A program made the translations under genes and the position numbers. Shown piece by piece: positions 4,901-63,420 of a stretch of 64,000 bases of DNA; position 1 is the first letter of the stretch, and each line of letters opens with the position of its first letter. Under the pieces are notes generated by a model, which saw nothing but the letters and a program-made list of their open reading frames with translations, was not told the origin of the DNA and did not search any database. The stretch lies in assembly GCA_963746775.1 (NCBI GenBank), contig CAVVCK010000001.1, forward strand, positions 339,050 through 403,049. Direction: 5' to 3'. Origin of the DNA: an uncultured bacterium (GTDB lineage Bacteria; Patescibacteriota; JABMPQ01; CAVVCK01).

Positions 4901-4962
4901 ATACATACAGGTTTGAAACCTAAACATATTTTGTACATACAGGTTTGAAACCTGTATCTACC
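4901..4962 (-). repeat. REP-like palindromic repeat family 1, two tandem units (ACATACAGGTTTGAAACCTGTAT) fused to the stop codon of the LCP gene
   Basis: Same ~26-bp unit is seen at 14801-14880, 22568-22652, 59694-59718 and 63343-63420. The last unit ends ...CCTGTATCTACC and overlaps the TAG stop. On the minus strand each unit starts with GTAG. Confidence 0.8.
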
Positions 4963-6090: not shown

Positions 6091-6931
6091 ACTTTATTTT
6101 TTTTGATTTTGATCCTATTTTAAAATTTTGTCCACTTACTACTTTTTTACCTGTTTTCTTTTCTAATTCCAAACGCGCATTTTTAGCTACTCTGCCACCC
6201 TTCTTAGCTGGACCTTTATTTTCTTTTAAACCTTTTGCCTCTACGGTTTCTGCGATTTGACGAGTAGAGAGTTCAGCTAAAGCAGTAAAAACTAATTCTG
6301 CATCGGTCATATGGTCACGCAAATTTTCTCTTTTTAGATTTTTTAAATTCTTATGTTCCCTGACTGATAATTCGCTCCATTCTCGATGAATAATATTAGT
6401 CAAAATAGCATATTCGTCTTTTTCCTTAACCTCATTATCTTTCCAATAATCCGTTAGTTTATTTCTGATTTCTTGTCCCATCATTCTTTGTTGAACCCAT
6501 TTCTTGCTTCTGCCCATTTTTTGCCAATAATCTCGAGAACGATTTAGGGCTTTTTCCGGATCATTTATTTCTTCTATGCGCTCATAACCTACCCTAGCTA
6601 ACCATAATTTTACCGGTTCGGCTTTAGGGCTGGGGATAGATTGAATTAGACGTAGTAGAGTTTCTGTATCGGCTGTATCAGTTTCACGCATTTTTCCATC
6701 TTCTGCTACCATTTTCAACCGGTGACATTTTGTCACCGCTTCACTTCCCTCTTTTTTAAGCCTTTCTGATAGTTTATTCCAATATTTTCTGACAGTTTGA
6801 TAATTAGGTTGTTCAATTAAAATCTGAACAATATCAATAATAGAAAAATACCATTTTTCTTTTTTCTCATCCCAAATCCGCCTAATTTTTTTATCTTTAA
6901 ATATGGCTAATTTTTGAGATTGTTTTTTCAT
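6089..6931 (-). CDS. DNA-damage-inducible protein D (DinD/Bro-N-like) family protein
   Basis: Strong resemblance to the DinD family (YFSIIDIVQIL, HRLKMVAEDGKMRETDTADTETLLRLIQSIPSPKAEPVKLWLARVGYERIEEI). Confidence 0.7.
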   Translation of the reverse strand: MKKQSQKLAIFKDKKIRRIWDEKKEKWYFSIIDIVQILIEQPNYQTVRKYWNKLSERLKKEGSEAVTKCHRLKMVAEDGKMRETDTADTETLLRLIQSIPSPKAEPVKLWLARVGYERIEEINDPEKALNRSRDYWQKMGRSKKWVQQRMMGQEIRNKLTDYWKDNEVKEKDEYAILTNIIHREWSELSVREHKNLKNLKRENLRDHMTDAELVFTALAELSTRQIAETVEAKGLKENKGPAKKGGRVAKNARLELEKKTGKKVVSGQNFKIGSKSKKIK

Positions 6932-14800: not shown

Positions 14801-14880
14801 GCACATACAGGTTTTAAACCTGCCTTGTACATACAGGTTTTAAACCTGCCTTGTACATACAGGTTTTAAACCTGTATCTA
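14801..14880 (-). repeat. REP-like family 1, three tandem units, fused to the gap stop codon
   Basis: ACATACAGGTTTTAAACCTG(CCTTGT) three times. The last unit ends CCTGTATCTAC. Confidence 0.8.
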
Positions 14881-19180: not shown

Positions 19181-19306
19181 TTTCTATTATTATTAATTAT
19201 ATTCTAAGTATATAGTTTTTTATTAAATATTCAATAATTTCGAAAAGATAATTTTATTTTTTTTACCTTATTATAGCCAATTTTTGACTAGTTTACACTA
19301 AAATCC

Positions 19307-19335
19307 TTGACATAAATACAACTATATGCTATTAT
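19307..19335 (+). promoter_or_regulatory. Near-consensus sigma70 promoter (TTGACA-N17-TATTAT) driving the GC-rich ncRNA island
   Basis: TTGACA at 19307-19312, a 17-bp spacer, then TATTAT at 19330-19335. No protein gene lies downstream on the plus strand. Confidence 0.55.
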
Positions 19336-19389
19336 CTGCAAGTTATGCTTCCAAAATGCATATTTTTCTATTAAATTAGCATTTCATAG

Positions 19390-19787
19390 AAATAACGCAC
19401 ATTGGAAGGGAGGTGGCCGTGTTTTATTACGCGGTCCGGTTCGATTGACGAAGGGCCCTTGCGCCCAACACAAACGTCAAAGAGAAGAACCCGAAAACCA
19501 CAACCGGCTCTCGGCCATCGAGCGACGAACAGCCAGAGCCATAACTGTCCCTTTGGGACAAGGAAGGAAGGTAAAGCACCACCTGTTCTGACATACTCTG
19601 TCTGATCTGCCTGGTGAGCAGAGATGAAAGACAGAGAGAGCTCGTGCATCTGCGCGAGCTACCATCTCCTCCAAAAAAGGAGGTGGATCAGGCACGGTCA
19701 ATGGTGCTGGAGTTTTCTCTCGCAAGAGAGAAATACCCCGAAAAAAAGGGAGGTCACTGAGCTATTGCAGTTCAAACCTCCAGTCTC
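19390..19787 (+). ncRNA. Unclassified structured RNA in a GC-rich island (predicted mature RNA from roughly 19343 to the hammerhead cleavage site at 19787)
   Basis: ~52% GC against ~30% background. Multiple perfect helices are visible: AGCTCGTGC/GCGCGAGCT at 19640-19661, CTCTGTCT/AGACAGAG at 19606-19636, GGCTCT/AGAGCC, GTCCC/GGGAC, and GGAGGT...ACCTCC. Overlapping ORFs on both strands are short and mutually exclusive. The RNase P P4 motif (GGCTTA) and tmRNA termini were not found. Confidence 0.45.
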
Positions 19788-19844
19788 TCCCGCTAAAAGC
19801 GGGACTGATGAGTCCTGATTATACAATTTATAAGGACGAAAGAC
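19783..19844 (+). ncRNA. Candidate type III hammerhead ribozyme at the 3' end of the GC-rich RNA
   Basis: All core positions are present. Stem I is TCCCGC-TAAAA-GCGGGA (19788-19804), followed by CUGAUGA (19805-19811). Stem II is GTCCT...AGGAC (19812-19837) with the G10.1-C11.1 pair. GAAA is at 19838-19841. Stem III is GTC(19783-19785)/GAC(19842-19844) plus the A15.1-U16.1 pair. The cleavage triplet is CUC, with the cut between 19787 and 19788. Stem III is only 4 bp. Confidence 0.45.
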
Positions 19845-19847
19845 CAT

Positions 19848-19875
19848 AAAAAAGAATTTGGTAAAATCCAGGTTC
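19848..19875. terminator. Bidirectional terminator hairpin (AAAAAAGAA...TTCTTTTTT) between the ncRNA and ogt
   Basis: 9-bp A/T-rich stem with T-runs on both strands between convergent transcription units. Confidence 0.4.
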
Positions 19876-19879
19876 TTTT

Positions 19880-20176
19880 TTATTTGAAATTATACAGATA
19901 TTTATTTAAATCAATTTTGCCTGACTTAATTTCTACTCCCTCTTCTTTTAATTTCTCTTTTTTCTTCTTATGCCCCCACCTAAATCCACCTACAAACCCA
20001 TCAGATCTAACTACTCTGTGACAAGGAACCTGCTTACTTCTATTTTTATTCAAAGCATTGCCTACTGCTCGATATGCTTTTGGCATACCTAAAGCTCGAG
20101 CTATTTCTTTATAAGCAGAAACTTTTCCTCTAGGTATTTTTTGCGTAATTTCAAATACTTTTTCTTTAAAATTCAT
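19880..20176 (-). CDS. ogt: Methylated-DNA--protein-cysteine methyltransferase (Ogt/MGMT DNA-binding domain protein)
   Basis: Active-site PCHRVV motif. Confidence 0.85.
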   Translation of the reverse strand: MNFKEKVFEITQKIPRGKVSAYKEIARALGMPKAYRAVGNALNKNRSKQVPCHRVVRSDGFVGGFRWGHKKKKEKLKEEGVEIKSGKIDLNKYLYNFK

Positions 20177-20190
20177 ATGTTAATATAAAA

Positions 20191-20213
20191 GGCAGGATAA
20201 GATCCTGCCCTAC
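20191..20213 (-). terminator. Palindrome family 3 (GTAGGGCAGGATCTTATCCTGCC + T-run on the minus strand); terminator after dfx
   Basis: GC-rich 7-8-bp stem followed by TTTTAT on the minus strand. A second copy at 59662-59684 follows the RND gene. Confidence 0.65.
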
Positions 20214-20239
20214 ACTGTTTTTTATAGCAAAAACATATT

Positions 20240-20617
20240 TTATTCACTTTTCCACAATTCATGAATATTACAATATTCTCGAGCGCTAATATTATCAGCT
20301 TTTACACAAAATTCTGCTTCAGGACTATCACCGGGCTTTAGATATTTACGATAAGTTACTCCATCAGCCTCAATAGCAATCCATTCAATATAATGTTCCT
20401 CCTCCATAGGATGAAGAACTGAGCCAACCTTTACTTTCACGCCATTTTCTGTCTTCTCGATTACCGGCACATGTTTTTCATTGCCTTCGTCTTCACTCTT
20501 CTCTTTTTGCAACTTCATAGGCTCTCCACAACAAACTAATTCTCCTGCACCTCCATGTAATACCTCTACGATATTGCCACAAACTTCACATTTATAAACT
20601 TGTTTTTGTTCTGCCAT
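20240..20617 (-). CDS. dfx: Desulfoferrodoxin (2Fe superoxide reductase)
   Basis: N-terminal desulforedoxin Cys cluster (CEVCGN...VCCGEPM) plus the C-terminal SOR domain (HVPVIE, ...YCNIHELW). Confidence 0.85.
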
Positions 20618-20742
20618 TTTTTTTTATTTTATTCCTACGAAACCCGTAGGATTTATTAATATATTATTATATCAAAAAATCGATTAACATAAAATATGCT
20701 TCGTACTTCCCTTCGTTCAAGGGAGAGAGGTACGAACTCATA

Positions 20743-20871
20743 TTATTTGTCACACTGGCATTCACTTTTTACTTTACCACATTTTTCACATTTTTCTTCC
20801 ATGTTTTCTCCACAACACTCCTTCATCTCATCTGATTCGGTGTGACAATGTTTACATTTATATTTGTTCAT
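20743..20871 (-). CDS. Unannotated 42-aa Cys-rich small protein (MNKYKCKHCHTESDEMKECCGENMEEKCEKCGKVKSECQCDK)
   Basis: Not in the ORF track (under 60 aa). A strong RBS AAGGAGGTGAT lies 6 nt upstream of the ATG. It has 10 Cys in CxxC/CC/CxxC/CxC spacing, and a hairpin follows the stop. Confidence 0.55.
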   Translation of the reverse strand: MNKYKCKHCHTESDEMKECCGENMEEKCEKCGKVKSECQCDK

Positions 20872-20967
20872 TTTAATCACCTCCTTTGTCTGCCGAAACC
20901 TTAGTGTGAGTGGACATTGCCCACTTTAACTTCAGCCAGGGCTAATTTTTTATATCCCTTTATATAC

Positions 20968-21216
20968 TTAGTTAATTCCTAAAATTTCTGATATCTTTTC
21001 TTTATCAAAACCAATTATAATTTCTTCCTGGCCATCTTTTTCAATCATTATTACCGGCACTGACATTTGTTCTGTTTTTTTCACCATTTCTTCAGCTGCC
21101 TCTCTATTTTTCGCTACATTAATATCAGTATATTCTATCTTATTTTCATCAAAAAACTCTTTAACCATTATACAATAAGGACAAGTTGGAGTCGAATAAA
21201 TTTTTACTTTGAGCAT
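20968..21216 (-). CDS. Glutaredoxin-like protein (NrdH/Grx family, CPYC)
   Basis: TCPYC active site in an 82-aa thioredoxin fold. Confidence 0.8.
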   Translation of the reverse strand: MLKVKIYSTPTCPYCIMVKEFFDENKIEYTDINVAKNREAAEEMVKKTEQMSVPVIMIEKDGQEEIIIGFDKEKISEILGIN

Positions 21217-21242
21217 ATTATTTTTTAATTAATTTATAAATT

Positions 21243-21422
21243 CTATTTCTCCTTGAGTCTGCGACACGAAGGGCAATATTTATGAACATTACTTCTTATT
21301 TTAGCATCTCTTTCTTCCTCGTAATCAAAATCATTTACCCATGTTTCAAATTGTACTTTACACATATCACATTCTCTTTTTATTTTTTCCCCTACGGGAT
21401 TTGTAAAATTATCTTTTTTCAT
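21243..21422 (-). CDS. Unannotated 59-aa zinc-ribbon protein (CDMC...CPSC)
   Basis: Hand translation gives MKKDNFTNPVGEKIKRECDMCKVQFETWVNDFDYEEERDAKIRSNVHKYCPSCRRLKEK. It is one codon under the ORF-track cutoff. Confidence 0.45.
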   Translation of the reverse strand: MKKDNFTNPVGEKIKRECDMCKVQFETWVNDFDYEEERDAKIRSNVHKYCPSCRRLKEK

Positions 21423-21457
21423 ATTTTTATATTTTTAATTTTTTATATTTTTAAATC

Positions 21458-22051
21458 TTAAATTTTTCCTACTAAATTCAAACCTGGTTTTAGAGTCTTG
21501 CCTCCTGGTATCCAATTAACCGGGCAAGCATAACCTTTGTGCTCTGCTGTAAATTTAGCTGCCTGTAATTTTCTCAATATTTCTTCAATATTGCGTCCAA
21601 TATCATTATCATGTATTTCATAAGATTTGATTACACCATGAGGATCAACTATTATAGTGGTACGCAATGACACGCCTTCTTCTTTCAAATAAGTACCCAA
21701 GGCTCTACACATCTTGCCAGCCGGATCTGCCAGCATAGGATATTTAATTTTCTTAATAGCTTCTGAATTATCATGCCAAGCCTTATGGACAAAAACCGTA
21801 TCTGTACTAATACTCACAATTTCCGCTCCCTCGCTTTTAAATTTATTATAATTTTCAGCTGCTGCTTCTAATTCTGTTGGACAAACAAAGGTAAAATCTG
21901 CGGGATAAAATAGCATTATAAGCCACTTGCTTCTATAGTCTGATGGCTTAATCTTCCTAGTCTTACCTTTATAAAATGCTTCTAGCTCTATATCAGGCAC
22001 CATCTGCCCTATAATTGGAATATAATTTTCTTCAAAATATACTTCTTTCAT
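21458..22051 (-). CDS. Peroxiredoxin (AhpC/TSA family)
   Basis: Peroxidatic Cys motif FTFVCPTE. Confidence 0.9.
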   Translation of the reverse strand: MKEVYFEENYIPIIGQMVPDIELEAFYKGKTRKIKPSDYRSKWLIMLFYPADFTFVCPTELEAAAENYNKFKSEGAEIVSISTDTVFVHKAWHDNSEAIKKIKYPMLADPAGKMCRALGTYLKEEGVSLRTTIIVDPHGVIKSYEIHDNDIGRNIEEILRKLQAAKFTAEHKGYACPVNWIPGGKTLKPGLNLVGKI

Positions 22052-22085
22052 AAATTTTTTGTTAACCCCGTAGGGGTGTTTTTAA

Positions 22086-22457
22086 TTAATTATTTTTATT
22101 TTGGCATTTTTTACAAATACCATATAAATAAATTTGATAATTTTTAACTTTACCTACTTTTACACATTTACAATCCAACTTACAGAATTTTCCAAAAAGA
22201 TCATAAATTTTATTACATTTCTCACAAACAAAATGTCCATGAGGTGAAATATCAGCATCAAAATGTGAGATCTCAGTATTTATTTCACAAATCTCACCCT
22301 TTTCTTTAAAATTTTTTAATATTCTATAAACCGTCCCCTGACTGATCTGAGGTAATTTCTTTTTTACATTTTTATAAACCTCCTCAGCCGAAGGATGAGA
22401 TTCAACGCTCTTTAAATAATCAATGATCACTTTCTTTTGATTGGTTAATCTTTCCAT
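22086..22457 (-). CDS. Fur-family transcriptional regulator, PerR-like
   Basis: Winged-helix N-terminus, HFVCEKC...C metal-site motifs, and placement inside an oxidative-stress gene block. Confidence 0.7.
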   Translation of the reverse strand: MERLTNQKKVIIDYLKSVESHPSAEEVYKNVKKKLPQISQGTVYRILKNFKEKGEICEINTEISHFDADISPHGHFVCEKCNKIYDLFGKFCKLDCKCVKVGKVKNYQIYLYGICKKCQNKNN

Positions 22458-22567
22458 ATTTCTTATTAGTAATTATTACTAATTAAATATTATTACTATT
22501 AATATTTTATGTCAAGAAAATTTGTGGATAACTAAAAAATGGGTTATAAACCCATCTCTACGATATC

Positions 22568-22652
22568 GTACATGCAGGTTTGAAACCTGTATTCCCAAAT
22601 ATACGGGTTTTAAACCTGTATTCCTGTACATGCAGGTTTTAAACCTGCATCT
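22568..22652 (-). repeat. REP-like family 1, three tandem units, fused to the trxB stop codon
   Basis: TACATGCAGGTTTGAAACCTGTATTCC, ATACGGGTTTTAAACCTGTATTCC and TGTACATGCAGGTTTTAAACCTGCATCTACC. Confidence 0.8.
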
Positions 22653-23565
22653 ACCTCTTTCCCGCCAAATACCGCGCCACCTTCAACAAGGCCATACACC
22701 CCTGCCCCGCTGATATTACATATTGATATTCATGGCCTGAAGCAACATCACCAGCAGCATATATGCCTGGCACATTAGTTTGCATTTGACAATCAACTTG
22801 AATATGCCCATCTTCATCTAATTCTACTATATCTTTAAAAGACTCCGTATTGGGCCTACGGCCAATTTCTATAATTACTCCTCTAACATTTATCTCTTTT
22901 ACCACTCCTTCTTGTTCAAATTTTAAACCAGATACTATTTTTTCACCTAAAATTTCTTTGGTATCAACATTATATAATATTTCCACTTTAGGATCATTAA
23001 TTGTCCGTTCCATTAAATATTCATGGCCCATTAATTTATCATCACGTACTATCAAATAAATTTTGGAAGCAATATTTTTCATAAAATCAACTGCTTCCAT
23101 AGCTGAATTACCTCCACCAATCACAGCCACCGGCATATCAGGAAATAAGGGGCCATCGCAGATAGCACAATAAGTTACCCCCCGACGAGCAAATTTATCT
23201 TCTCCTGGCACATTTAATTTACGTGATTTAGATCCAGTCGTTATAATTATTGATTTTGTTCTATATTTACTTTTATCAGTAATAACTTCAAAATCTATCC
23301 CTTCTTTTCTGACACTTTTTACATATTCACTAACAATTTCTACTTGATTAATTTCCATTTGCTTCTTCATAATAGATCTCAATTCAATACCAGTCGTCTG
23401 GATAATGCCAGGATAATTTAATATTTCTCCACTAACTAGAAATTGACCACCAAAATCTGGTGCAATGATTTTATAATTCATTCTCTTGCGAGAAGCATAA
23501 ATAGCAGCCGTTAAGCCCGACATACCAGCACCAATAATAATTGTCTCTAATTTATTTTCTTTCAT
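22651..23565 (-). CDS. trxB: Thioredoxin-disulfide reductase
   Basis: FAD motif GAGMSGLTAA, redox-active CAICDG and NADPH-binding GGGNSA. Confidence 0.9.
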   Translation of the reverse strand: MKENKLETIIIGAGMSGLTAAIYASRKRMNYKIIAPDFGGQFLVSGEILNYPGIIQTTGIELRSIMKKQMEINQVEIVSEYVKSVRKEGIDFEVITDKSKYRTKSIIITTGSKSRKLNVPGEDKFARRGVTYCAICDGPLFPDMPVAVIGGGNSAMEAVDFMKNIASKIYLIVRDDKLMGHEYLMERTINDPKVEILYNVDTKEILGEKIVSGLKFEQEGVVKEINVRGVIIEIGRRPNTESFKDIVELDEDGHIQVDCQMQTNVPGIYAAGDVASGHEYQYVISAGQGCMALLKVARYLAGKR

Positions 23566-23653
23566 AAAGCCTTCTTAATTATTTTTTTAAAATATTTAGA
23601 TGAAATAAATTTCAACTTATTTCAATACCAAACCACTTCAACTTTTTCTAAAT

Positions 23654-24238
23654 TTAATAATTCTCACTCTTTAATTGATAATAGCTTCTGGGATGATCAC
23701 AAGAAGGACAAGTCTGAGGTGGTTCCTCACCAAAGTGAACATAACCACACTCCATACAAACCCACCATACTTTCTTTTCTTTTTTAAAAATAGTACCTGC
23801 TTCTATTTGCTCTAATAATTTTTTATATCTTCCTTCGTGGTGCCCTTCAGCCTTAGCAATAGATCTTAGCCGATCAGCTATTCTATTTAATCCATCTTCC
23901 TCTGCCTGCTTAGCAAAATCAGGGTACATTGTATTATATTCATAATTTTCTCCCTCGATAGCTGCTTTTAAATTATCAATAGTTTTGCCATATGTTAATG
24001 GTGCAGTTGCTTCTATTTTAATTTCTTTGAGGTCTTCCCCTAATTTTTTTTTCACTTCCTGAATATGCTCAAACAATCTTTTAGCATGTTCTTTTTCATT
24101 ATCGGCTGTGATTTGAAAAATTTCTCTAATTTGTTCATAGCCTTCTTTACTAGCTAATTTGGCATAAAAAGTATATCTATTACGAGCCTGACTCTCTCCT
24201 ATAAAAGCTTTGGTCAAATTTTCTAATGTTTCTTTCAT
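23654..24238 (-). CDS. rbr: Rubrerythrin
   Basis: Ferritin-like di-iron ExxH motifs plus a C-terminal rubredoxin CMECGY...CPSC. Confidence 0.9.
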   Translation of the reverse strand: MKETLENLTKAFIGESQARNRYTFYAKLASKEGYEQIREIFQITADNEKEHAKRLFEHIQEVKKKLGEDLKEIKIEATAPLTYGKTIDNLKAAIEGENYEYNTMYPDFAKQAEEDGLNRIADRLRSIAKAEGHHEGRYKKLLEQIEAGTIFKKEKKVWWVCMECGYVHFGEEPPQTCPSCDHPRSYYQLKSENY

Positions 24239-59625: not shown

Positions 59626-59718
59626 GTAGGTTGGGTTGAGTACTCGAAACCCAACAAAAAAGGCAGGATACGATCCTGCCCTACAATATTGTTGTACATA
59701 CAGGTTTCAAACCTGTAT
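59626..59718 (-). repeat. Cluster of three different REP-like palindromes between the RND gene and msrB: family 2 (59626-59655), family 3 (59662-59684) and family 1 (59694-59718)
   Basis: GTAGGTTGGGTTGAGTACTCGAAACCCAAC, GGCAGGATACGATCCTGCCCTAC and GTACATACAGGTTTCAAACCTGTAT lie consecutively, 6 bp after the RND stop. Confidence 0.8.
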
Positions 59719-63342: not shown

Positions 63343-63420
63343 ATACATGCAGGTTTTAAATCTGTATTCCAATATATAACCTATATTCCAATATATACAG
63401 GTTTCAAACCTGTATCTACC
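63343..63420 (-). repeat. REP-like family 1, two units with a degenerate middle unit, fused to the rlmN stop codon
   Basis: ATACATGCAGGTTTTAAATCTGTATTCC ... ATATACAGGTTTCAAACCTGTATCTACC. The overlapping ORF 63289-63498 is rejected. Confidence 0.75.

Follow-up and report, generated by a model that had tools for sequence, protein, structure and literature searches.

Desulfoferrodoxin (Dfx) and rubrerythrin (Rbr) need one-electron donors, and the classical donor is rubredoxin, as in the rbo-rub gene pair of Desulfovibrio vulgaris. The FeS4 domain of desulforedoxin is a distorted form of the rubredoxin-type centre. Stand-alone desulforedoxin is something of a curiosity of bioinorganic chemistry; most of its characterisation comes from a single Desulfovibrio species, and what it does in the cell is still unclear. 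In Clostridium pasteurianum, a rubredoxin gene reportedly lies downstream of cp34-cp9-cp20, the genes of an NADH peroxidase system. In the SORGOdb collection, the genes for superoxide reductase (SOR) cluster with rubredoxin (PMC3116461). Cp9 lies between thioredoxin reductase (TrxR) and peroxiredoxin (Prx) and carries electrons between them (PMC3720550). Here, a stretch of 64,000 nucleotides from an uncultured bacterium of the Patescibacteriota was analysed (contig CAVVCK010000001.1, positions 339,050 to 403,049; the whole stretch is called the window, and positions are counted from its first letter). A block of nine genes on its minus strand encodes, in the order of reading, rubrerythrin (rbr), a TrxR-like flavoprotein (trxB), a PerR-like repressor (perR), a peroxiredoxin (prx), a 59-residue mini-protein (z59), a glutaredoxin-like redoxin of the YruB/Cp9 family (grx), a 42-residue mini-protein with eight cysteines (c42), Dfx (dfx), and a methyltransferase domain (ogt). 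The main subject of this study is c42, which is desulforedoxin-like in motif and predicted fold and falls outside that family by curated hidden Markov models (HMMs) and by loop length.

The gene block itself, which belongs to a small genome rich in AT, is an ordinary, textbook defence of anaerobes against oxidative stress. A preliminary description, made from the DNA alone, had proposed a compact detoxification block of the anaerobe type (SOR, Rbr, and Prx) centred on PerR, and the domain content supports this proposal. As in the Cp34/Cp9/Cp20 NADH peroxidase of C. pasteurianum, a TrxR-like flavoprotein, a YruB redoxin, and an AhpC-type Prx are encoded together, here within 2.6 kb. The locus differs from that system in its gene order and in the split of the genes over two predicted transcription units. 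Moreover, the system appears to be placed under a PerR-like repressor, and the two mini-proteins are interleaved with its genes.

The eight-cysteine protein c42

Two features are needed first:

20743..20871, minus strand: c42, a 42-residue protein with eight cysteines, recognised by its motif, its conservation, and profile and fold comparison
20877..20886, minus strand: the perfect Shine-Dalgarno (SD) sequence AAGGAGGTGA of c42, the sole 10-nt match in the window

The deduced sequence of c42 is MNKYKCKHCHTESDEMKECCGENMEEKCEKCGKVKSECQCDK. Eight cysteines were counted (C6, C9, C19, C20, C28, C31, C38, and C40), where the preliminary description had given ten; the 42-residue open reading frame (ORF) at 20743-20871 and the strong ribosome-binding site AAGGAGGTGA ahead of it were confirmed. 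The N-terminal half (residues 4-26) reads YKCxxC-x9-CCGxxM, to be compared with YKC-x2-C...CCG-x2-M, the Fe(Cys)4 signature of the desulforedoxin type. The adjacent-cysteine pair, by which the distorted Fe(Cys)4 site is defined, is common to c42, desulforedoxin of D. gigas (Dx, 1DXG), and the N-terminal centre-I domain of Dfx (PF06397/TIGR00319). There are also differences from desulforedoxin. The C-terminal half of c42 contains a second four-cysteine group, CxxCG-x5-CxC (C28, C31, C38, and C40), which is absent from desulforedoxin, and the loop between CxxC and CC is shorter by 6 residues (9 residues versus 15). The cut-offs of the curated HMMs are missed as well.

Homologues were collected from related or comparison loci, mostly metagenomic contigs, which are labelled L001, L091, and so on. 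Residues K5, C6, C9, C19, C20, and M24 do not vary among the six members of the alignment, and the seventh (L097), which was not in the alignment, has them too; Y4 and G21 have each changed in one of the seven variants. The equivalent signature positions are invariant or nearly so across 30 N-terminal domains of Dfx. When the c42 family was compared with these 30 domains by hhalign, a probability of 88.7% and a P value of 2.5e-6 were obtained, and c42 residues 4-26 were paired with Dfx residues 8-36 with one 6-residue gap. The score was 27.8, against 10.5 ± 2.7 (maximum 20.6) for column shuffles, none of 300 of which reached it; the reversed alignment scored 8.2.

For a comparison at the level of the fold, the AlphaFold2 (AF2) model of c42 was searched by Foldseek against 350,542 PDB chains. 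The models were built on 6 sequences, the best with a predicted local distance difference test score (pLDDT) of 85 and the other four with 65-71. Desulforedoxin (1DXG) took the first rank with a probability of 0.98 and a template modelling (TM) score of 0.59, Dfx (1DFX) the second, and SORs the fourth to the seventh, whereas rubredoxins appeared at rank 14 or lower with TM scores of about 0.3 (about 0.32). Pfam gave no rubredoxin match to c42, in which the arrangement of two CxxCG/CPxCG knuckles, spaced by about 30 residues around an aromatic core (PF00301), is absent. The preliminary description had stated that the protein resembles neither rubredoxin nor the spacing of classic metallothionein; its N-terminal half turned out to resemble the FeS4 domain of desulforedoxin by both profile and fold. 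Because of the motif, profile, shuffle, and fold comparisons, c42 is regarded here as a putative desulforedoxin-like mini-metalloprotein with two Cys4 sites. An internal duplication of c42, with the N-terminal half compared with the C-terminal half, was rejected, since 44 of 200 shuffles scored equally well.

The protein is very rare, and seven sequence variants were found. A word-indexed search of 5.8 billion proteins with c42 as the query gave nothing beyond c42 itself, and two relatives came to light when 1.84 billion representative proteins were scanned exhaustively with HMMER. A profile search of the 5.8 billion proteins gave six clusters, and the seventh variant was taken from a cluster listing. 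In the literature, no description of a c42-like protein was found. All eight cysteines are kept in six of the seven variants; they are complete in the most divergent homologue (L093:961-1083, 49% identity), which lacks an SD sequence and lies between genes for a dual-specificity phosphatase and an EamA transporter. In six of the seven lineages, c42 stands directly 3' of the YruB-type grx. The gene order is perR-z59-grx-c42-dfx in L091 and L092 and perR-prx-z59-grx-c42 in L096.

Pairwise Nei-Gojobori dN/dS values were 0.04-0.19 for c42 and 0.08-0.19 for z59, with grx, dfx, and perR in the same range and with synonymous sites near saturation. Both mini-ORFs are real, conserved, lineage-restricted genes under purifying selection. 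A lack of conservation or of coding signatures, which the preliminary description had named as grounds for dismissing them, was not seen, with dN/dS of this order and kept synteny. They had also been called unannotated, and this is only partly correct; both are absent from the first-stage ORF track, but both exact sequences are present in NCBI and ENA records, and the z59 gene has already been called on many metagenome contigs.

The expression signal of c42 is conspicuous within the window. An SD core in the region from -20 to -4 is missing in 56 of the 61 window genes of at least 80 residues. Judged from these ORFs, the genome appears largely to manage without SD sites. The SD sequence of c42 is kept (as AAAGGAGGTG) upstream of its homologues in L091, L094, L095, L096, and L097. 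That the sole perfect SD sequence in the window belongs to c42 argues for selection for high expression.

The spacer between grx and c42 has 96 nt in the window (20872-20967), 137 nt in L097 (433-569), and 28-33 nt in the other relatives. The additional length is made up of degenerate units, one to three in number and each about 33 nt long, which end in CTAAGG-N-T-N-CGGC just ahead of the SD sequence; they showed no significant fold. The 96-nt spacer has expanded in this lineage specifically, with a partial repeat of the expansion in L097. A riboswitch or other structured leader RNA in the spacer was considered and rejected (folding z-score -0.8, single copy, no Rfam match).

Possible roles of c42

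The explanation that we prefer for the locus as a whole combines a defence locus, control by PerR, a peroxide-reducing chain, and c42 as a two-site metalloprotein, and we hold it with belief and doubt in about equal parts. In this explanation, the PerR-type repressor would bind to a 19-bp palindrome in its own promoter, and oxidation of its metal site by peroxide would release the operon. By analogy with Cp34/Cp9/Cp20, TrxB would reduce the YruB/Cp9-type redoxin, which would pass the electrons to the AhpC-type Prx. Dfx would convert superoxide to peroxide and Rbr would reduce peroxide. c42 would be a miniature metalloprotein whose cysteines make up two sites of four; the first of these may be derived from, or convergent on, the Fe(Cys)4 centre of desulforedoxin. 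Its perfect SD sequence suggests abundant synthesis of c42 alongside the redoxin. It probably serves the Grx/Dfx/Rbr system as a small partner, either in one-electron transfer or in the handling of metal, and most plausibly it would stand in for rubredoxin as an electron donor. What the sequence data show are the genes, their conservation and selection, the likeness in motif and predicted fold, and the operator palindrome; the identity of the metal, the electron flow, and the control by PerR we infer. c42 would then be a rare variation, not described before, on a metal centre of known kind. The metal or redox sensor or chaperone suggested in the preliminary description would be a possible role, though not the best-supported one.

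The distribution of rubredoxin genes was compared with that of c42. Of 80 loci of other lineages, 11 (L012, L018, L031, L035, L043, L047, L053, L056, L061, L079, and L082) have a classical rubredoxin gene (52-75 residues) no more than 6 kb from dfx, and in L056 the gene (6381-6539) is directly 3' of dfx. No c42-like ORF was found in these 11 loci, and pattern scans of the window and of the contigs of the c42 clade gave no small ORF with the rubredoxin pattern. Like rubredoxin, the donor to SOR and rubrerythrin, c42 is a small Cys4 protein whose gene has dfx, rbr, or the gene of a YruB-type redoxin as a neighbour. Unlike rubredoxin, it has neither a CPxCG second knuckle at the rubredoxin spacing nor the aromatic core. 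Profile and fold comparisons place desulforedoxin and Dfx first for c42, and its gene adjoins dfx.

Several observations weigh against the preferred explanation. First, c42 is absent from L001-L010, where the gap between grx and dfx is 53 bp. These loci keep the order perR-prx-z59-grx-dfx-ogt, and the absence of c42 from the same gene order implies that it is not required for Dfx. Second, the constant neighbour of c42 is grx rather than dfx, and a terminator-like hairpin stands between c42 and dfx. In L097 (570-2064), c42 is separated from dfx-ogt-iPGM by the genes of a thiol:disulfide oxidoreductase resembling TlpA/ResA and of a membrane protein of the CcdA/DsbD_TM type, in this order, and in L093 neither grx nor dfx is nearby. 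Third, the similarity to desulforedoxin stays below formal thresholds. c42 scored 9.8 bits (E 0.84) against the Pfam desulforedoxin cut-off of 23, over residues 1-9 only, and gave no NCBIfam match at E ≤ 0.1. Searches of PDB sequences with the c42 and z59 profiles gave nothing significant, with desulforedoxin at E 4.7. One of the five AF2 models of c42 was confident (pLDDT > 80), and the Foldseek matches to desulforedoxin and Dfx, with TM scores of 0.5-0.6, had non-significant E values of 0.2-2 because c42 is tiny. Fourth, the metal could be zinc and the sites purely structural. Finally, the rubredoxin scan of this genome covered 64 kb, and a rubredoxin gene could be located elsewhere in it.

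The first alternative is a metal buffer or metallochaperone resembling metallothionein, which would hold or deliver iron, zinc, or copper from proteins damaged by peroxide, or load iron into Dfx and Rbr, with no electron transfer. We regard it as unlikely, though still worth serious attention. Eight cysteines in 42 residues and the high abundance implied by the very strong SD sequence are in its favour, and the presence or absence of c42 varies among close relatives as would be expected for an accessory gene. In addition, the L097 protein, which at 88% identity is closest to c42, has the C-terminus ...DDMPHHHHDE, a His-rich tail whose four histidines are typical of metal-handling proteins; this tail likewise fits the metal binding assumed in the preferred explanation. 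However, the fixed cysteine pattern with two discrete four-cysteine groups and a redox-centre motif is unlike the clusters of metallothionein, and no metallothionein model of Pfam or NCBIfam matches c42.

A bolder form of the preferred explanation is that c42 is the first of a class of mini iron proteins not yet described, with two centres in about 40 residues, namely a shortened desulforedoxin site and a second Cys4 site, which would replace rubredoxin in a narrow, apparently rubredoxin-poor clade with small genomes. Such a protein would be reduced through TrxB and the YruB-type redoxin, perhaps with z59, and would donate single electrons to SOR and rubrerythrin. We consider it improbable in this full form; if true, c42 would couple the two-electron chemistry of thiols to the one-electron chemistry of iron within one PerR-controlled operon.

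Less probable again is that c42, perhaps together with z59, is a thiol/disulfide client or a redox buffer of the YruB-type redoxin, serving as a substitute for a low-molecular-weight thiol where glutathione is lacking, or as a thiol switch that signals oxidation. The adjacency of grx and c42, with a spacing of 28-33 nt in most lineages, and the position of z59, always directly upstream of grx, would be explained in this way, but the desulforedoxin-type motif and the two four-cysteine groups point to metal sites.

We give still less credence to a generic structural zinc-knuckle mini-protein with a role outside redox chemistry, for example one that binds nucleic acid or protein, with its likeness to desulforedoxin due to convergence. 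It is favoured by weak, non-significant matches of c42 to Zn_ribbon_8 and to the TFIIE zinc finger. Furthermore, a rubredoxin profile of 10 sequences aligned 15 columns of c42, the first knuckle only, with a score of 25.9 close to that of desulforedoxin. On the other hand, the CCGxxM half, which is specific to desulforedoxin and Dfx, lies within the hhalign alignment, the fold matches favour desulforedoxin and Dfx over rubredoxins, and the c42 gene stays in oxidative-stress clusters. The last reading, that the small ORFs arose by chance or that c42 is the precursor of a modified Cys-rich peptide of the SCIFF/ranthipeptide type, is very improbable and largely refuted; the mini-ORFs are indeed short, Cys-rich, and without a Pfam family, but the low dN/dS with saturated synonymous change, the kept SD sequence and synteny, the lack of an adjacent radical-SAM or other maturase gene in any examined locus, and the lack of a SCIFF or other NCBIfam match to c42 all speak against it.

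As a desulforedoxin-like module, c42 is natural and smaller still than desulforedoxin, with a second Cys4 site and strong purifying selection, and it is encoded in the perR operon beside dfx. It may serve as a minimal scaffold for the study and engineering of Fe(Cys)4 centres, and in reduced genomes, where SOR and Rbr lack a known electron donor, it is a testable candidate for that part. It also exemplifies a functional protein of about 40 residues below the ORF-length cut-off of the first-stage track.

The gene block, its regulation, and z59

The gene calls were scored with Pfam and NCBIfam models and their cut-offs. The genes of the block, in the order of reading, are as follows:

23654..24238, minus strand: rbr, rubrerythrin, 194 residues (Pfam Rubrerythrin and RUBY_RBDX)
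22651..23565, minus strand: trxB, thioredoxin-reductase-like flavoprotein, 304 residues, CAIC active site (Pfam Pyr_redox_2, 2e-44)
22086..22457, minus strand: perR, PerR-like repressor of the Fur family, 123 residues (Pfam FUR)
21458..22051, minus strand: prx, AhpC-type typical 2-Cys peroxiredoxin, 197 residues (Pfam AhpC-TSA, 1.7e-35, and 1-cysPrx_C)
21243..21422, minus strand: z59, 59-residue CxxC...CPxC mini-protein (synteny, dN/dS, and AF2 model)
20968..21216, minus strand: grx, glutaredoxin-like redoxin of the YruB/Cp9 family, 82 residues, CPYC (Pfam Glutaredoxin)
20240..20617, minus strand: dfx, desulfoferrodoxin (two-iron superoxide reductase), 125 residues (TIGR00320)
19880..20176, minus strand: ogt, stand-alone methyltransferase catalytic domain, 98 residues, PCHR motif (Pfam DNA_binding_1, 3.4e-29)

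With c42, the block consists of seven named genes and two mini-ORFs, and not of nine annotated genes as first described; all of them are at the positions that had been given for them, and the seven named genes carry the domains that had been claimed (Pfam and NCBIfam). Four of them passed an NCBIfam cut-off: rbr (RuberyRbr, 253 bits versus 200), grx (TIGR02196 GlrX_YruB, 90.6 versus 88.55), dfx (TIGR00320, 215 versus 147), and ogt, an O6-alkylguanine methyltransferase domain (TIGR00589, 84.8 versus 46.4). The scores of trxB (TIGR01292, 303.8 bits, equivalog cut-off 343) and prx (TIGR03137 AhpC, 237 bits, cut-off 272) were high but below theirs; the Pfam domains of both genes exceeded their cut-offs. 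The nearest sets of perR, rbr, and dfx among species representatives are labelled Candidatus Saccharibacteria (L025 and L033). The ogt homologue in L001 (2354-2637), L003, and L005 is in two overlapping pieces in different frames and is probably frameshifted.

The regulatory elements found around these genes are listed below:

22541..22650, minus strand: tandem array of three hairpin units of 29 nt each, followed by the hairpin GGGTTTATAACCC with a T-run, the likely end of rbr-trxB
22487..22515, minus strand: perR promoter, TTGACA-17-TAATAT (promoter scan and conservation)
22465..22483, either strand: 19-bp perfect 9-1-9 palindrome ATTAGTAATAATTACTAAT, a candidate operator of the Fur family (palindrome search)
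20700..20736, minus strand: stable hairpin directly 3' of the c42 stop codon (folding z-score -4.5)
20189..20211, minus strand: intrinsic terminator after dfx (terminator scan)

The placement of the hairpins and terminators suggests four transcription units, namely rbr-trxB, perR-prx-z59-grx-c42, dfx, and ogt. The rbr gene is preceded by a promoter-like TTGATA-18-TATATT (24299-24270), and the 29-nt hairpin units after trxB are copies of a dispersed palindrome, ACAGGTTTNAAACCTGT. The perR promoter is kept in the relatives L001, L004, L006, L007, L009, and L091, and it probably drives perR-prx-z59-grx-c42 as a single unit. The hairpin after c42 is the likely end of this operon, and hairpins of differing sequence follow c42 in six of the seven loci. 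For dfx, a conserved promoter-like TTGATA element is found at 20670-20675.

The assignment of the repressor as PerR is supported by several sequence comparisons. Its best NCBIfam models are PerR models, with 89 and 86 bits against 49 for Fur, all under their cut-offs of 180-200. The top two PDB matches are PerRs, and the best is B. subtilis PerR (2FE3, E 1.1e-19). H21, D67, H73, H75, and D86 all align with the ligands of the regulatory site of 2FE3, and C78, C81, C115, and C118 align with its structural Cys4 zinc site. In the numbering of B. subtilis PerR, we take the regulatory ligands to be H37, D85, H91, H93, and D104. Thus, the five regulatory ligands, including the Asp of the PerR type, and the Cys4 zinc site are kept here, although the present protein differs in being short (123 residues) and in having additional cysteines.

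The palindrome ATTAGTAATAATTACTAAT follows the -10 hexamer and precedes the perR start codon, ATG. Its copy in L091 is identical, and the copy of the L001 group has one change, so that a conserved palindromic operator is supported by sequence. As in the PerR regulons of Gram-positive bacteria and anaerobes, a palindromic operator of the Fur family would overlap the promoter of the regulator itself. The half-site is TAGTAAT here, in contrast to TTATAAT of the PerR box. It is presumably closer to the Zur-type TCGTAAT, judging from the published consensus sequences. PerR boxes had been expected upstream of prx, rbr, and dfx, but a single convincing box was found, in the perR promoter. No box comparable to it was found upstream of rbr, trxB, or dfx; at other promoters, there were only matches with 3 mismatches, which are to be expected in AT-rich DNA. 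The locus differs from known PerR regulons in this single box.

The second mini-protein, z59, has CxxC at residues 18-21 and CPxC at residues 50-53. The ORF at 21243-21422 and its double CxxC agree with the preliminary description, whereas the zinc ribbon assigned to it does not. The AF2 model, which was made from two sequences only, is all-helical with four helices (pLDDT 82); C18 and C21 are inside the helix of residues 9-31, and C50 and C53 are at a helix start. Neither a zinc-ribbon match in Pfam nor a significant match in NCBIfam, PDB sequences, or PDB folds was obtained for z59. Among homologues of 53 residues, 25 columns are invariant, including all four cysteines. In every related contig reaching far enough (L001-L010, L091/L092, L096, L097, and L106), z59 is immediately upstream of the 82-residue redoxin gene. 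Its fixed position, 23-31 nt upstream of this gene, suggests that it is a partner of the redoxin. Together with the model, this suggests a helical four-cysteine accessory protein of the redoxin, for which a Zn(Cys)4 site or a dithiol switch would be a guess at the mechanism. z59 is thus a second uncharacterised candidate partner, always upstream of the YruB-type redoxin.

Structured GC-rich RNA and dispersed palindromes

Between ogt and the phosphoglycerate mutase gene (iPGM), an island of about 650 bp (19232-19890, plus strand) with 51-55% GC was found, compared with about 30% for the genome. It has its own promoter, TTGACA-17-TATTAT (19307-19335), and a bidirectional terminator, and its RNA has a highly structured core of about 440 nt. 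The minimum free energy was -205 kcal/mol, against -143 ± 6.8 for shuffles (z = -9.2). Near its 3' end, there is a type III hammerhead motif (19780-19847) with an intact CUGAUGAG...CGAAA core, which scored 24 bits in Rfam, under the gathering score. No other Rfam family (E ≤ 10) and no tmRNA (ARAGORN) was detected in this RNA. One metagenome scan and two scans of viral contigs with exact patterns gave no match, nor did nhmmer against all the loci gathered up to then.

The island is an insertion relative to L097, where the gap between ogt and iPGM is 28 bp. L001 and L002 carry an ATPase gene at this spot; in the strains L001, L003, and L005 of the nearest relative, ogt and iPGM are separated by an inserted ATPase_2/DUF234 gene. 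In two metagenome loci, L100 and L105, GC-rich non-coding stretches close on their 3' side with the same hammerhead and terminator, with two compensatory changes in stem I of the L100 hammerhead. A pattern scan of metagenomes also gave hammerhead-like motifs with the same stem II and III sequences in L099, L101, L102, L103, and L104, in unrelated surroundings, and L101 has two such copies 1.2 kb apart.

The dispersed palindrome ACAGGTTTNAAACCTGT has 11 copies at 5 sites in the window, where about 0.01 would be expected by chance:

4907-4955: ACAGGTTTNAAACCTGT site
14807-14875: ACAGGTTTNAAACCTGT site
22574-22648: ACAGGTTTNAAACCTGT site
59700-59716: ACAGGTTTNAAACCTGT site
63349-63413: ACAGGTTTNAAACCTGT site

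The copies are often in tandem arrays with a period of 26-32 nt, one of which is 3' of trxB. At 59700-59716, the element falls on the anticodon arm of tRNA-Ser(UGA). Of the eight perfect 9-1-9 palindromes in the window, five are ACAGGTTTNAAACCTGT elements.

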